Assembly: GCF_006345805.1 (NCBI RefSeq)
Contig: NW_021823798.1
Coordinates: 1 to 23,264, forward strand
Length of the DNA: 23,264 nucleotides
Origin: Octopus sinensis
Taxonomy: Eukaryota
Reading direction: 5' to 3'
The position numbers and the translations under genes were made by a program. The notes below the pieces were generated by a model. That model was not told where the DNA came from, made no database searches, and was given only the letters and a program-made list of their open reading frames with translations. This document shows positions 4,083 to 23,264 of this stretch, piece by piece; the stretch's first letter is position 1; each line of letters opens with the position of its first letter.

Positions 4083-4454
4083 TTTGTCTCAAGGGCAGCC
4101 ATTTTGGGGAAGGGGATGAGTCGATTACATTGAACCAGTGTCTCACTGGTACTAAATCTATCGACCCCGAAAGGATGAAAGGCAAATTTGACCTCGGCGG
4201 AATTTGAACTCAGAACGTAAAGACAGACGATATACCTATTTCTTTACTACCCACAAGGGGCTAAACACAGAGAGGACAAACAGATTAAGTCGATTATATC
4301 GACCCCAGTGCGTAACGGTGCTTATTTAATCGGCCCCGAAAGGATGAAAGGCAAAGTCGACCTCGGCGGAATTTGAACTCAGAACGAAGCGGCAGACGAA
4401 ATACCGTTAAGCATTTCGCCCGGCGTGCTAACGTTTCTGCCAACTTACCGCCTT
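4083..4454 (-). mobile_element. SINE family A dimer: full copy (4237-4454) joined to a headless copy with a different tail (4083-4236)
   Basis: tRNA-like head (TGGCAGAAACGTTAGC A-box-like; GAGTTCAAATTCC B box) and central GCCTTTCATCCTTTCGGGG.CGAT domain. The B box and central domain are present twice. Flanked by (TAA)n on both sides. Confidence 0.9.
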
Positions 4455-4521: not shown

Positions 4522-5115
4522 CTTTCTTTTTCCGTAGAGCTTTCTGATGAAGGTGATATAAGTACAGTTTACGATTTTCGTGCCGATTTACGTAAGGAAT
4601 GTGAGGGGGAAAGGAAAGAATGGGGAGAGGGGGTAAAAATGTATCTAAATGTACATAGTATACAAAACATGTAAATACATGGATGATGCAGTCCTCCTGA
4701 TACAAGACAGCCTCCAACTAGGGCTAATCAAAGAACCCCTACAGACCCAGCGTCACTCTGAACACGAAGGACACGAACCCTCGCCAAGCTGTTATTCTCC
4801 ATTCTGCTTATTCCAAGCAGAACTTGAAGAAGCCGATGAGGACTTGACTGAAAACGATATCTGTCCTCAACAATTTCAACCTCGTTCATCACACAACTTT
4901 TTTTTCTGCTTGGTTACGAGACGAAATAACATTGCCTGCAACACATTAAAGGCAGGCGGTTGGGCGAACCTACAATGGACTCGGAAAGCATAAAGTTTCG
5001 TACTACATCTGATAACAGCTGTTCCACATAACTCCTCGAGTCATCAATACTCGGACACTACATGAGTGTGTGCCGTACGACTTTGTTGCTCTATGCACAT
5101 TTCAGACAGTCTCAC

Positions 5116-5352
5116 CTATTTTTTTACCACCCACAAGTGGCCAAACACAGAAGGGACAAACAAGAACAGACAAACGGATTAAGTCGATTACATCGACCCC
5201 AGTGCGTAACTGGTACTTAATTTAATCGATCCCGAAAGGATGAAAGGTAAAGTCGACCTCGGCGGAATTTGAACTCAGAACGTAACAGCAGACGAAATAC
5301 GGTTACGTATTTCGCCCGGCGTGCTAACGTTTCTGCCAGCTCGCCGCCTTCC
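5116..5352 (-). mobile_element. SINE family A, full-length, with 14-bp target-site duplication
   Basis: Complete head-body-tail. TSD TCAGACAGTCTCAC at 5102-5115 and 5353-5366. Confidence 0.95.
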
Positions 5353-5699
5353 TCAGACAGTCTCACTTGGCGGCACTTCCATGCCTGTAGATTTCACCTT
5401 ATACCAATGAACACTTTTCACTACCAGACCCCGAGTTTCTAAAAGTTATTTCTAGAAATCGCCGGCCCAAAAGCCCCACGCAACAGACAAACCAGTTCGG
5501 CCGGTTCCATTGAGGACAGTGAGGTGTTTTGAGATTGGTATTTGGATGTTAAATATCATGGAAAGAGACCCTGTGAGACCCTTGTCAGTAGGCTGTTGGC
5601 CGCTCCTACAAAACCAGCCGGAGCAAGTAAAATCAAGAGCTCTGGAAAGTGAAATGAAAATGAGAATAACAACAACACTGAACCACTGAAAAAGCATCT

Positions 5700-8371: not shown

Positions 8372-9555
8372 TATTATTGTCTTTGCACAGCATCTAACGC
8401 TGGAGATGTACTACGGTGTCAGCTGTTCACTACCAGTGAACTAAAGTAACACCCGTTATTTTTCGAGCACCATCTGGAGTATTCGAGTGATTCCAAGTAG
8501 TGTTGTTTTCTGCAAGTGCTCCACCCTTATTGCAGTCCCTATTTGTCCCATGTACTTCTCAAGATTTTTACTCACTATTCCCAGGGCTCCGACAATTATT
8601 GTTCCACCTTTTGTTTTTTCGACCACAACTGCTTAACCTCCCATGTAACCTGTCATATCTATCGACTTTTCTTTCTTCCTTATCGCATACCTTGTTGTCA
8701 GCTGGGCATGCTATATCTATGGTCCAGCATCGTTTGCTTTCTTTCTCAATTAACACTATGTCTGGTTTCCTATTCTCTATGTCATGGTCGCACTGAACCG
8801 TAAAATCCCATAGGATCTTTGAATTATCATTTCCGATGATGCCTTCGTGTTATGTTCGTACCACTTTCTTGCTCTGTCAAGTCCATACTTGTTGCAAAGT
8901 ATCCAATGGACAATCCTTGCTATATTGTCATGACGTCTCTTATATTCTTTCTGGGCTACTGGCGTACATTGACTGGTATTATGCCATTAAGTTTCACCAT
9001 TTTGTCCACAAATTCTTGTCACTTTCTGATGTGTTGTCTATTCTGTATTTGATGTAATTCGTTCTTAATGCCTCCGGTTTTAAATCACTTTTATTCATCC
9101 ATAGCCTTTTTTTTTCTCTGTCTGTCTTATCTTCCACATCCCTATTAAATTGTTCATGTATTCGTTTCTTTATCCACCTATTTTCAGTTTCATTCATTCT
9201 CAAGTCCTTGTACAGTGCTTTGATTTTTGCAATCTCCCATCCTACACGATCCTGCACTTCTTACTTCCAATAATAACGGTTCTGTTACATCTTTTACATA
9301 CCATATTATGCTGTTTTCTTCTACTCTAATGCTGTGTTCGCATCCAATAAGTCCTCTTCCCCCTCACGTTACTTTTTCTTGGTACATAGTCTGTCTGCGT
9401 CACTTTTTGGTTGGAGTATTCCATATCTAGTCGGCAACTCCCTTATCTGTCTACGCTCTTTAGTTCATCTACTGTCCATGCGATTACCCCTGTTCCATAT
9501 CTAAGTAGTGAAACCGCTCAGGTGTTGATAGCTTCAATCTTATTCCATCCGTTTA
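8372..9555 (-). mobile_element. 5'-truncated R4/Dong-like non-LTR retrotransposon (RT thumb, zinc-knuckle region, RLE endonuclease, 3' UTR), frameshifted
   Basis: Minus-strand peptides NGWNKIEAINT*AVSLLRYGTGVIAWTVDELKSVDR; YIKYRIDNTSESD; RRHDNIARIVHWILCNKYG; KILWDFTVQCDHDIENRKPDIVLIEKESKRCWTIDIACPADNKVCDKEERKVDRY (PD..D RLE motif); LQKTTLLGITRILQMVLEK* (stop 8456-8458). The short 3' UTR ends in AATAATA. Confidence 0.9.
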
Positions 9556-9770
9556 AGGCTGAGAGCTGGCCAAATCGTTAGCACGCCGGACGAAGTGCTT
9601 AGCGATATTTCGTCCGTCACTGAGTTCTAAGTTCAAATTCCACCGAGGTCGACTTTACCTTTCATCCTTTCAGGGTCGATAAATTAAGTACGAGTTTTCG
9701 TACCGGGGGTCGATCAAATCGACTGGTCCCCTGCCCCTAGAAAATCTATATTGTGCCTATAGTAGAAAGG

Positions 9771-9821
<51 letters not shown>

Positions 9822-10049
9822 TTATATTATTATTAAGGCGGCAAGCTGGCAGAATCGTTAGCACGCCGGGCAGAATGCTTAGCGGTATTTCGTCTCCTGT
9901 TACGTTCTGAGTTCAAATTCCGCCGAGGTCGATTTTACCTTTCATCCTTTCGGGGTCTATAAATTAAGTAAGTACTGGTTGAGTATTGGGGTCGATTTCA
10001 GGCCTTGTGCCTATAGTCGATTTCAGGCCTTGTGCCTATAGTAGAAAGG

Positions 10050-10090
<41 letters not shown>

Positions 10091-10222
10091 GGTGGCGAGA
10101 TGGCAAGCAAAATGCTTAGTGTCATTTTCGTCCTTGTGTACGGTCTGAGTTCAAATTTCGCCGAAGTCGACTTCGCATTTCATCATTTCGTGGTTTGATA
10201 AAATAAGTACCAGTTGAACACC
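9555..10222 (+). mobile_element. Head-to-tail array of three SINE A copies (9555-9770, 9835-10049, 10091-10222) separated by (ATT)n
   Basis: Each copy starts AAGGC/GGTGGC..GCTGGC or similar and has the GTTCAAATT B box and the TTTCATCCTTT domain. Copies 1 and 2 end GTGCCTATAGTAGAAAGG(ATT)n. Copy 2 carries a 25-bp tandem duplication (9991-10040). Confidence 0.9.
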
Positions 10223-12134: not shown

Positions 12135-12533
12135 CTCTTTTACTTGTTTCAGTCATTTCACTATGGCCATGCTGGAGCAACGCCTTTAGTCGAGCAAATC
12201 GACTCCAAGACTTATTCTTTGGAAGCCTAGTACTTATTCTATCGGTCTATTCTGCCGAACCGGGGACGTAAACACACTAGCATCGGTTGGCAAATGATGT
12301 TGGGGGGGGACAAACATAGACACACAAACATACACACACACACGCACACACATACATATATATATATACATATATACGACGGGATTCTTTCAGTTTCCGT
12401 TTACCAAATCCACTCACAAGGCTTTGGTTGGCCCGAGGCTATAGTAGAAGACACTTGCCCAAGGTGCCACGTAGTGGGACTGTACCCGGAACCATTTGGT
12501 TGATAAGCAAGCTACTTACCACACAGCCACTCC
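12135..12533 (-). mobile_element. SINE family B, full-length (tRNA head, CORE-like domain, internal TG/TA microsatellite, GTAAAAGAG tail)
   Basis: Minus strand GGAGTGGCTGTGTGGTAAG...GGTTCCGGGTACAGTCCC then CACCTTGGGCAAGTGTCTT (CORE-like), ending GCTCCAGCATGGCC...GACTGAAACAAGTAAAAGAG. Confidence 0.9.
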
Positions 12534-12660
12534 CACAGTGGAAGAGACTGGCATATGAACGTTGCAAATCTCATTTCTAGAATTTGTCAAGAAATTTTGT
12601 GACTTATTTATCTTCCTTAATGTAAATATAATTTTAACAGCAATATATGTGTGTATATCT

Positions 12661-12870: not shown

Positions 12871-13129
12871 AATATATGTCCGTATGTCTTAGCATCTGTA
12901 TGAGGGTTAAGTTGTATGTTCATTAAAACGTTCATCTTAAATTTCAAACTACTATTTCAAAAATACTGCACAATATATACATGTGTGATGGTTTGTAGGT
13001 ACACACACACACATATATAAAGAGAGATGCTTATATACATTTCATTTGTGTTTTCAGACAGCATTTTTAAATGTGCATACATATAAATAAATGAATAAAA
13101 TAGAAGCAACTCTCAAAATTCCACCCACT

Positions 13130-13249
13130 GAGCCTAATACTTATTCTATTGGTCTCTTTTACCGAACTGCTAAGTTACGGATTCCTAAACACACCAACAT
13201 CGGTTATCAAGCTATGGTGGTGGGGACAAACACAAACACACAAATACAT
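13130..13249 (-). mobile_element. SINE family B 3'-side fragment
   Basis: Matches 12224-12335 (GCCTA.TACTTATTCTAT.GGTCT...CATCGGTT...GGGGACAAACA). Confidence 0.8.
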
Positions 13250-17010: not shown

Positions 17011-17345
17011 TACACACACATAAATACATGCATGCATTATGAAAATACATTTACATATGTATAAATATACATATATGTATAGAGAGAGAGGGGGAGAGAG
17101 AGGTATCGAATGCGAGGGAAGGATAGATAGATAGATAACTTTCTTTATTGGCCACACAGGGCTGAACACAGAGGGGACAAATACAAATGCAGAGCTTTTC
17201 TTTTCGAAGATGGAAAAGAAAAAGGAAAATAAAGAATCAAATGTAAAATTCCGATCAAAAGGTATCAGGGGAAAAACACAAATAGAGAGAGAAATAATAT
17301 TATATATATATATATTAATATATATATATATATATATATATATAA

Positions 17346-21350: not shown

Positions 21351-21846
21351 TAATGATAATTTGCTAACTCCAAAATTTAAATTTATAAATTGGGGGCAAA
21401 ATTGAAATAGGTAAGGTCAGTAAAATATTTTCGATTCTATCACATTTTTACATTTAGCTCGTCACTTTCTGTACATTACTGAATAATTGCTTATCATTAT
21501 CAAATAGCTCGGTAGTATATATAATGAGCAATTTTGAAAATTAAGAAAATGGGATATAGTAGAGTTGTATCCTTCAATTTCAACATCGAAAACAAAAATA
21601 TTAGAAATCTGTAGAGATATCATCCAATCAATAAATAATTAAGGCATTAACATTATTTTGCTTGTGAGGAATTCTTTGCTATTTTACAATAATTCTGTCT
21701 TAATTTGAAATATTTTGATGCAGTGATGGGATCGTATGATGGAAACGAGGCTTCTGAATTGATTGTTATTGTACAAACATGAACTATGTTAATATAAATT
21801 CTGACTACTCTCCAATAATCTTTAAAACTATGTTAGTAGAGAGATG

Positions 21847-22255
21847 AAGGCGACGAGCTGGCAGAAACGTTAGCACGCCGGGCGAAATGAGTAGCCGTAT
21901 TTCGTCTGCCGTTACGTTCTGAGTTCAAATTCCGCCGAGGTCAACTTTGCCCTTCATCCTTTCGAGGTCGATAAATTAAGTACCAGTTACGCACTGGGGG
22001 CGATGTAATCGACTTAATATCTTTGTCTGTCCTTGTTTGTCCACTCTATTTTTCGCCCCTTGTGGGTAGTAAAGAAATAGGTATTTCGTCCGCCGCTGCG
22101 TTCTGAGTTCAAATTCCGTCGAGGTCGACTTTGCCTTTCAACCTTTCAAGGTCGATAAATTAAGTACCAGTTACGCACTGGGGTCGATGTAATCCGTTTG
22201 TCTGTCCTTGTTTGTCCCCTCTATGTTTAACCCCTCGTGGGTAATAAAAGAAATA
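21847..22255 (+). mobile_element. SINE family A dimer: full copy (21847-22079) plus headless copy (22080-22255), both tail type 1
   Basis: B box, central domain and the TGTGGGTA.TAAA.GAAATA-type tail are each present twice. The junction reads AAAGAAATA|GGTATTTCGTC. Confidence 0.92.
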
Positions 22256-22349: not shown

Positions 22350-23264
22350 GTTATTGTAGTTATCGTTTAATCCTCGGATTCGCTCGGATCCAGGCGAACC
22401 ATGATTTAAAATGTTCCACTTATGACCATACTACCATATATTCAAATATAGTATATTCGTACAGTATTTTTTAAAATATCGATTTAGCTGCTATTTCCAG
22501 CTCTTCAAGCGACCACTTGAAAGCTCAGTTGTATTTGTTGCTTTGTTGTGTTTGTCGTTGTTGCTGCTGTTATTGTTGTTGTTGTTAAGCAAGAAGACGA
22601 GTAAGGGTGATTAAGTGATGGTCTAGGGCTTAGGGGCGGGAGAACCCAGACCTTGGAAAAAAATCTTTGGTTATCTTGTTGTAGTCGAGGGCTCTTCGTT
22701 GACGCCCGACACCACTGGGAGGTGGCCCTCGAAGTCGCTGGAAATGGAAATCTCCAGGTCCAAATTCTTGAACGGCTGCTGCTGTTATTGCTTCTGCTTG
22801 TGTTGTTGTCTTTGGTTTCTAGGTGTTACCGTTTAAGTAGATTTACAATGAAGGGGATTCTAAACATGACCATCCAGTCTTTTTAGGTGTGCGTATGATT
22901 ACATTAATCAGTATATCACTTCATTTACTAAGGTGGCAGTGACTAATTTGTAGGACATTTATCTGCTATTACCAGCTCATCGAGTGACCACATAAAGGCA
23001 CGTCTGTTAGCCTGTATTGTGTCATTTATGTGACAGACTGCTTATCGTAAAAATGAAGATGTTGTTATTGTTGTAGTTGTTGGTGCTGTTGTTGTTATTG
23101 TTTTTGTTGTATTGTTTTTGCTGTTTGGTAATGAGTGCCTTGATCGACCAATCTTCTAATCAAACGACGTAGAAGTCTTAATCACTGTGTTCGATATTTT
23201 CAGGCATAGTGTCCCTAGCGCAACATTATATAATATATCCTTTCTCTTTCAATACAATGGGATA
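22350..23264 (-). mobile_element. Cluster of three diverged family D copies (about 22350-22527, 22795-23005, 23110-23264), each with a (GTT)n tail on +
   Basis: GATTTAGCTGCTATTTCCAGCTC..CAAGCGACCAC (22481-22516) and ATTTATCTGCTATTACCAGCTCATCGAGTGACCAC (22957-22991); ATGACCAT in both; (GTT)n at the left of each copy. Confidence 0.6.

Follow-up and report, generated by a model that had tools for sequence, protein, structure and literature searches.

Recurrent insertion of an abundant octopus SINE at preferred positions within related copies, with pairing by its RNA end as the probable guide

The window analysed here, a stretch of 23,264 nucleotides of Octopus sinensis DNA, contains two dimers of a short interspersed element (SINE), and it raises the question of why both dimers join the same tail to the same internal position of the tRNA-like head. 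The original prediction, which described this common junction in the dimers at 21847 (forward strand) and 4083 (reverse strand) and a different tail in the downstream half of the latter, is accurate on both counts: at the predicted coordinates, each dimer joins a type-1 tail to head position 50 (Table 1), and the 4083 dimer, located within (ATT)n, terminates in a type-3 tail, unlike type 1. The two halves of the dimer at 21847 diverge by 11%, similar to random copies, with 12 differences in one unit and 10 in the other, and its flanks, judged by eye, contain no clear target-site duplication. Its head carries, at positions 45/50, the type-1 variant that lacks the GGTA site, so that this part likely derives from the inserted copy. 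The monomer at 5116–5352 has the ending that had been described for it, AAATAG before GT, but the last G does not come from the target: it is missing in the upstream duplication copy and so arrived with the element.

Table 1 Coordinates of the SINE dimers, the monomer and the LINE end in the window
Feature	Position	Strand	Description
Dimer 1	21847..22255	+	Tail/head junction 22079|22080; type-1 tail joined to head position 50
SINE head positions 1–49 of dimer 1	21847..21895	+	A-box-like motif by inspection; putative host/insert mosaic
Dimer 1, first unit	21896..22079	+	Type-1 body (B-box-like motif) and T-variant tail; putative inserted copy
Dimer 1, second unit	22080..22255	+	Head position 50 to type-1 tail, then AG-class flank; putative host remainder
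Dimer 2, head and type-1 unit	4237..4454	-	Preceded by (TTA)n tract; junction 4237|4236
Dimer 2, type-3 host remainder	4083..4236	-	Head position 50 to end in (ATC/ATT)n
Type-1 monomer in unique DNA	5116..5352	-	14-nt target-site duplication; 3' G element-derived
Monomer target-site duplication, 3' copy	5102..5115	.	14 nt
Monomer target-site duplication, 5' copy	5353..5366	.	14 nt
L1/Tx1-type LINE 3' end	17140..17262	-	Last ~45 nt common to type-1 tail; 5' limit approximate

Microsatellites made up most of the signal when the window was compared with itself. Other repeats in the window include three consecutive type-2a-like copies at 9555–10215 (forward strand), each of which begins within the (ATT)n tail of the preceding copy; in the copy at 9835, a piece of the tail is duplicated. 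A second repeat family, unrelated to the SINE and presumably CORE-SINE-like, occupies 12181–12535 and about 13125–13235, and this family also receives type-1 copies, at a GGTA (locus L051). A dispersed repeat of ~37 nt, found at 22481–22518 and 22957–22999, is present in many contigs of runs X17–X20. Contigs of these runs compared with dimer 1 belonged largely to other copies and yielded no readable empty site or monomer allele. Run X20 also contained an 835-nt contig that matches the flank 21652–21848 at 92% and then diverges, possibly a site without the dimer.

The SINE unit is 233 nt long, and its copies are alike over positions 1 to about 165; four alternative tails define types 1, 2a, 2b and 3. 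Types 2a and 3 are older, with a body mismatch to type 1 of about 0.15, subfamily differences included. Position 21 is diagnostic, being T in 29 of 33 old (type 2a/3) monomers and A in 73 of 90 type-1 monomers. The element is short, non-coding, high-copy and interspersed, with target-site duplications of variable length, as befits a SINE. The A- and B-box-like motifs of its tRNA-like head were identified by inspection against the consensus; ARAGORN found 0 genes, Rfam gave no match, and folding of the tails revealed no clear hairpin common to them.

The self-junction is a real, large-scale feature of the genome, far beyond chance. In the 2.72 Gb searched, the exact junction 25-mer occurs 23,657 times and its reversed control 0 times; relative to 83,386 exact 14-mers of the type-1 tail, junction copies amount to 28% of tails. 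Tabulation of the sequence downstream of type-1 tails, as the original prediction had proposed, pointed to one head position: on contig C1, the first 100 tails of type 1 were taken irrespective of downstream sequence, and 53 of them continue near head position 50. The remainder are followed by TA-type DNA (21), unique GG flanks (13), AG flanks (4), an antisense copy (2), another head position (1) or other sequence (6). According to a study of crocodilian SINEs, a retroposon is target-specific if more than 20% of its flanks are of one kind (PMC4494074), a proportion well below the 53 of 100 found here.

In unique DNA, type-1 copies are flanked by target-site duplications of 10–22 bp that mostly start directly after the tail, usually right behind ...AAATA, so the target itself starts with GGTA. 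Analysed by tail variant, targets begin with GGTA (T-variant), AGAA (C-variant) or TATA, and most share a loose pattern with T/A as the third base and A as the fourth. In the family head, GGTA stands at position 50, and a second hotspot, at position 17, presents AGAA; both sites receive insertions, including in old type-2/3 copies and at junctions that had already formed. Either host state can follow position 17, paired with the corresponding host tails. Exact 25-mers place the T-variant tail at position 50 in 23,657 cases and at position 17 in 233, and the C-variant tail in 530 and 2,244 cases, respectively (odds ratio about 430). The coupling extends to flanks scored as non-SINE (34 GG versus 5 AG for the T-variant, 1 versus 19 for the C-variant; p = 5e-10), about 9 of these 59 being diverged or antisense family copies. 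Since the site depends on the tail variant carried, the single sequence-preferring LINE endonuclease that had been invoked at the outset is insufficient as the sole explanation.

In non-SINE flanks, the match to the expected extension of the tail fades beyond 4–7 bases. Several copies, including the window monomer, carry 1–3 bases matching this extension between the tail and the duplication; these bases are missing in the upstream duplication copy and hence came from the template. At eight distinct junctions, the tail end has been re-copied, a sign of priming there. By analogy with R2Ol, the likely guide to the site is a few read-through bases pairing with the nicked target, and at TATA sites priming can occur from the tail's own ATA. 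Within the same elements, the GGTA site on the sense strand is used ~60 times more than the antisense one, an excess that calls for more than four bases. Our guess is that longer pairing by read-through RNA explains the sense excess, to which duplication or composite copying may also contribute.

Insertion at the same base into existing relatives is directly visible at the DNA level. A host head that runs through the site and a short stretch into a second complete head was matched 82 times. For duplication scoring, 23 of 30 such loci were used, one per tandem run. In 12 of these 23 separate loci, a 13–18 nt duplication follows the new element, and in 11 it includes host-private bases, such as a deletion in L146; 10–11 nt duplications occur at two further loci, and at the other 9 of the 23, some of which are head-only duplications, no duplication of at least 10 nt was seen. 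Full-length insertions at already existing junctions gave 40 matches, with a duplication in 13 of the 20 places scored. The antisense GGTA site in family copies is also used (385 cases); the insertions there are ordinary copies, full-length or truncated, and in 6 of 12 a duplication could be seen. Nested copies whose duplications carry host-private bases thus bear out the central proposal of preferred-site insertion into pre-existing family members. Of the antisense insertions in family copies (L363–L374), some are stacked as alternating inverted structures. Head-only tandem repeats of 65–76 bp, running from the head through the site, were observed at L127–L133, L139–L141, L148 and G000:C3430:1374-2210, with up to nine or more repeats in series and, in some cases, without a downstream host half.

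Seamless junctions are ~300 times commoner than the nested form and have no duplication, so that direct proof of insertion spans about 1 in 300 junctions. We therefore analysed the heads of old-host arrays, in which the last unit is of an old type; one pattern located 74 such places genome-wide, of which 70 were fetched. Host states were scored in 57 of 69 distinct loci, leaving out 9 scored as type-1-like and 3 nested. The host state at position 21 is present in 28 of 47 scorable old-host array heads; among type-1 monomers the figure is 15 of 90, and among old monomers it is 29 of 33. At position 45, 11 of 51 array heads have the type-1-only state. Host sequence is kept in the would-be duplicated zone in 2 of 49 old-host seamless arrays.

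A mismatch gradient was computed from 48 of 63 loci. In the 26 heads with the host base at position 21, mismatch falls from the 5' end to the body through 0.154 (positions 3–20), 0.133, 0.118, 0.048 (positions 51–66) and 0.040 (body), the last-unit (host) bodies of the same arrays having a mismatch of 0.14. The slope is weaker in the 20 heads with the type-1 base (0.12, 0.078, 0.064, 0.031), and type-1 monomers with A at this position show 0.04–0.07 along their whole length. Heads with the host base are distinct from type-1 monomers (p = 0.0007) but not, when compared per locus, from the other array heads (p = 0.16). A 5' end that is host-like and grades into type-1-like sequence places the switch from host to insert somewhere within 65 nt of shared sequence, in agreement with the proposed seamless, homology-type 5' junction. 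Such mosaic heads fit a cDNA that annealed to host head sequence upstream, in the way described for R2 templates; a nested copy collapsed later by recombination predicts the same mosaic and would look the same.

The enzyme probably comes from an L1/Tx1-type LINE whose 3' end lies in the window; the final ~45 nt of this end align with the type-1 tail, and a tail shared with a LINE is a SINE property. The 3' end has 236 exact matches, and the frames upstream of them match Exo_endo_phos, RVT_1 and zf-RVT. With an APE endonuclease, a reverse transcriptase and a C-terminal zinc-binding domain, the LINE has the make-up of the L1 superfamily, and among solved structures its reverse transcriptase is closest to L1 ORF2 (E 4e-19 versus 1e-8 for R2); an Atlas search added only 'reverse transcriptase'. 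Copies of the LINE (L321–L362) land in (TCTA)n in 27 of 30 cases and have no poly(A). These two properties make it a putative member of the Tx1 clade. It comprises at least two 3' subtypes with different terminal bases, which begin with GTT in 12 of 14 copies of one and 0 of 14 of the other, and neither was found landing at GGTA or AGAA. A repeat survey of Octopus vulgaris describes recently active L1-Tx1 families (PMC13282606). At locus L007, upstream of the array, a truncated type-1 unit is abutted by an antisense 3' fragment of another LINE that ends in (AAG)n. This fragment, presumably R4/Dong-like, was considered as a partner and dropped, being antisense and, by eye, having a different end.

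We favour, with a probability of roughly 0.7, the reading that the SINE inserts into relatives at set positions of their heads, that the tail variant sets the site through pairing of the RNA 3' end, and that the 5' end is closed by annealing. Type-1 copies land at GGTA, AGAA or TATA targets according to their tail, and heads of their own family present the first of these at position 50 and the second at position 17. The tail-sharing LINE would supply the enzyme, and RNA extending beyond the tail would be the source of the pairing bases, longer pairing favouring the sense head. The cDNA would then pair with 65 nt of identical upstream host sequence, which would leave neither a second head nor a duplication and make the head a mosaic. 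The product would retain the A and B boxes and gain a tail followed by GGTATTT, and would thereby act as a further source whose preference is unchanged, closing a feedback loop. In long arrays, further units are added by local DNA duplication.

The coupling of tail and site could also reflect a choice between enzymes, with two LINE partners or endonucleases of different cut preference each recognizing one tail variant. Target choice in Tx1 elements is described as mainly set by the endonuclease (PMC4494074), and both the 3' subtypes of the candidate LINE, which differ in their terminal bases, and the loose pattern common to most targets would suit this explanation. However, the SINE tail variants are only one to two bases apart, both LINE subtypes land elsewhere than at GGTA or AGAA, and the extra extension-matching bases are not present in the target copy; we consider a choice between enzymes unlikely. 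It is less likely still that a few self-insertions made dimers and that these composite sources, retrotransposed whole, gave rise to most arrays. Whole arrays flanked by outer duplications do occur, L143 contains a trimer between host duplications, and units within type-1-only arrays are of similar age in one test (0.040 versus 0.042, n = 35, p = 0.47), the last unit being older in another (0.046 versus 0.028, n = 39, p = 0.007). Yet the 25 type-1 dimers comprise 25 different haplotype pairs, which agrees with the earlier view that no single dimeric master is involved, and their neighbouring units differ by 0.093, compared with 0.104 for random pairs. Moreover, the last units of arrays span types 1, 2a, 2b and 3, and both last units carry linked rare variants in 5 of 11,450 array pairs, with 2.4 expected, a test that very many sources would escape. 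Insertion of young copies into old ones, as originally proposed, holds for type-2/3 hosts and is not robust for type-1 hosts. Type-1-only arrays are the commonest, and self-insertion is extended to them by extrapolation from arrays with old hosts; template jumps or composite copying may have contributed to them.

Arrays might also arise in one insertion, if the reverse transcriptase jumped from one SINE RNA to another at the shared GGTA or went round a circular RNA. This would account for the absence of internal duplications and for the like ages of units in type-1-only arrays, and low-level template jumping is reported for R2 (PMC10499050). However, a young type-1 head is predicted, and old-host arrays begin with host-like sequence at their 5' end; a circle should yield neighbouring units that match, as 1 of 25 dimers has, and neighbours differ like random pairs; the head bases before the site are CG or CC rather than the AG of a splice acceptor; and nested copies with duplications represent DNA-level insertion at the same base. 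The concatemeric or circular RNA template, put forward earlier as an alternative, is therefore unsupported where testable, and we regard one-insertion arrays as very improbable. Least credible as a sole cause, and refuted as such, are SINE-derived minisatellites growing only by unequal crossover or slippage: a first junction is still required, the signature of local duplication is found in 1 of 25 dimers, and mixed-subfamily arrays and tail-variant coupling in unique DNA stay unexplained. As a second step, this process stands. Neighbours with rare variants in common are found in 4 of 8 arrays of at least 6 units, 4 of 14 arrays of 4–5 units and 5 of 27 trimers, and L008/L009 contains a duplication with breakpoints within units; long arrays thus also grow through local DNA duplication.

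Building on insertion guided by the tail variant, we tentatively suggest, at somewhat less than even odds, that the preference is inherited via sequence outside the element, the downstream flank of each copy guiding its offspring, and that a founder inserted in a head of its own family began a self-feeding homing loop; an L1-type enzyme of an animal would then carry out RNA-programmed, self-homing retrotransposition. If so, tens of thousands of scarless insertions would have overwritten part of their relatives' promoters, each becoming a new source with the same guide. If the favoured reading is right, a few RNA bases would steer one L1-type enzyme to different genomic sites, and homology-repaired 5' junctions, a step known chiefly through experiments on R2, would be available in the genome as tens of thousands of natural replicates. 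How much target choice owes to the endonuclease and how much to RNA pairing would become directly testable. A very abundant SINE could multiply in this way yet strike little new DNA, and a route would lead from dispersed SINEs to satellites. Annotation would also be prone to take such hybrids for dimeric subfamilies and to date them wrongly.

Octopus tRNA-derived SINEs, named OK, OR1 and OR2, were reportedly described by Ohshima and Okada in 1994; the present SINE would resemble them in size and in its A/B-box-like motifs. We found no description of a SINE targeting its own head or of variant-coupled sites in the literature searched. The crocodilian SINEU elements share with the octopus SINE a strong target preference, a tie to a Tx1-type LINE (Tx1-Mar) and tandem copies through sequential insertion, and co-transcription with the target is said there to be able to strengthen specific integration (PMC4494074). 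Their target, however, is another element, Mariner-N4_AMi, rather than the head of their own family, and in their tandems the full copies are still separated by a duplication, whereas octopus junctions are mostly seamless and the tail variants use different sites.

For R2, published work describes pairing of the R2Ol RNA 3' end with the target, priming being aided by four target-matching bases (PMC6530143), and annealing of the cDNA to upstream homology, which yields a seamless 5' junction (PMC11331408). R2 is autonomous, with a restriction-like endonuclease and protein-set specificity for 28S rDNA (PMC6530143, PMC11331408, PMC10499050); the octopus SINE is non-autonomous, has an APE-type candidate partner and is supplied with homology by being its own target. 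RTE-related SINEs, like the octopus SINE, show a correlation between the sequence at their 3' terminus and the bases with which the target starts; they are reported to have a microsatellite end and an animal microhomology of 1–2 bases (PMC6007223), as opposed to a 4-base, non-repetitive end that leads to sites within the family and a tail shared with an L1-like LINE. Squamate SINE-derived satellites likewise consist of a SINE portion repeated in tandem, the longer arrays being more uniform, and are attributed mainly to unequal recombination (PMC10702118), whereas octopus dimers consist of unrelated copies with an insertion-made first junction. Thus, target-preferring SINEs with Tx1 partners, the tail-target correlation, R2 pairing and annealing, and SINE-derived satellites were already known separately; the position-17 site and the tail variant deciding the site are new here.
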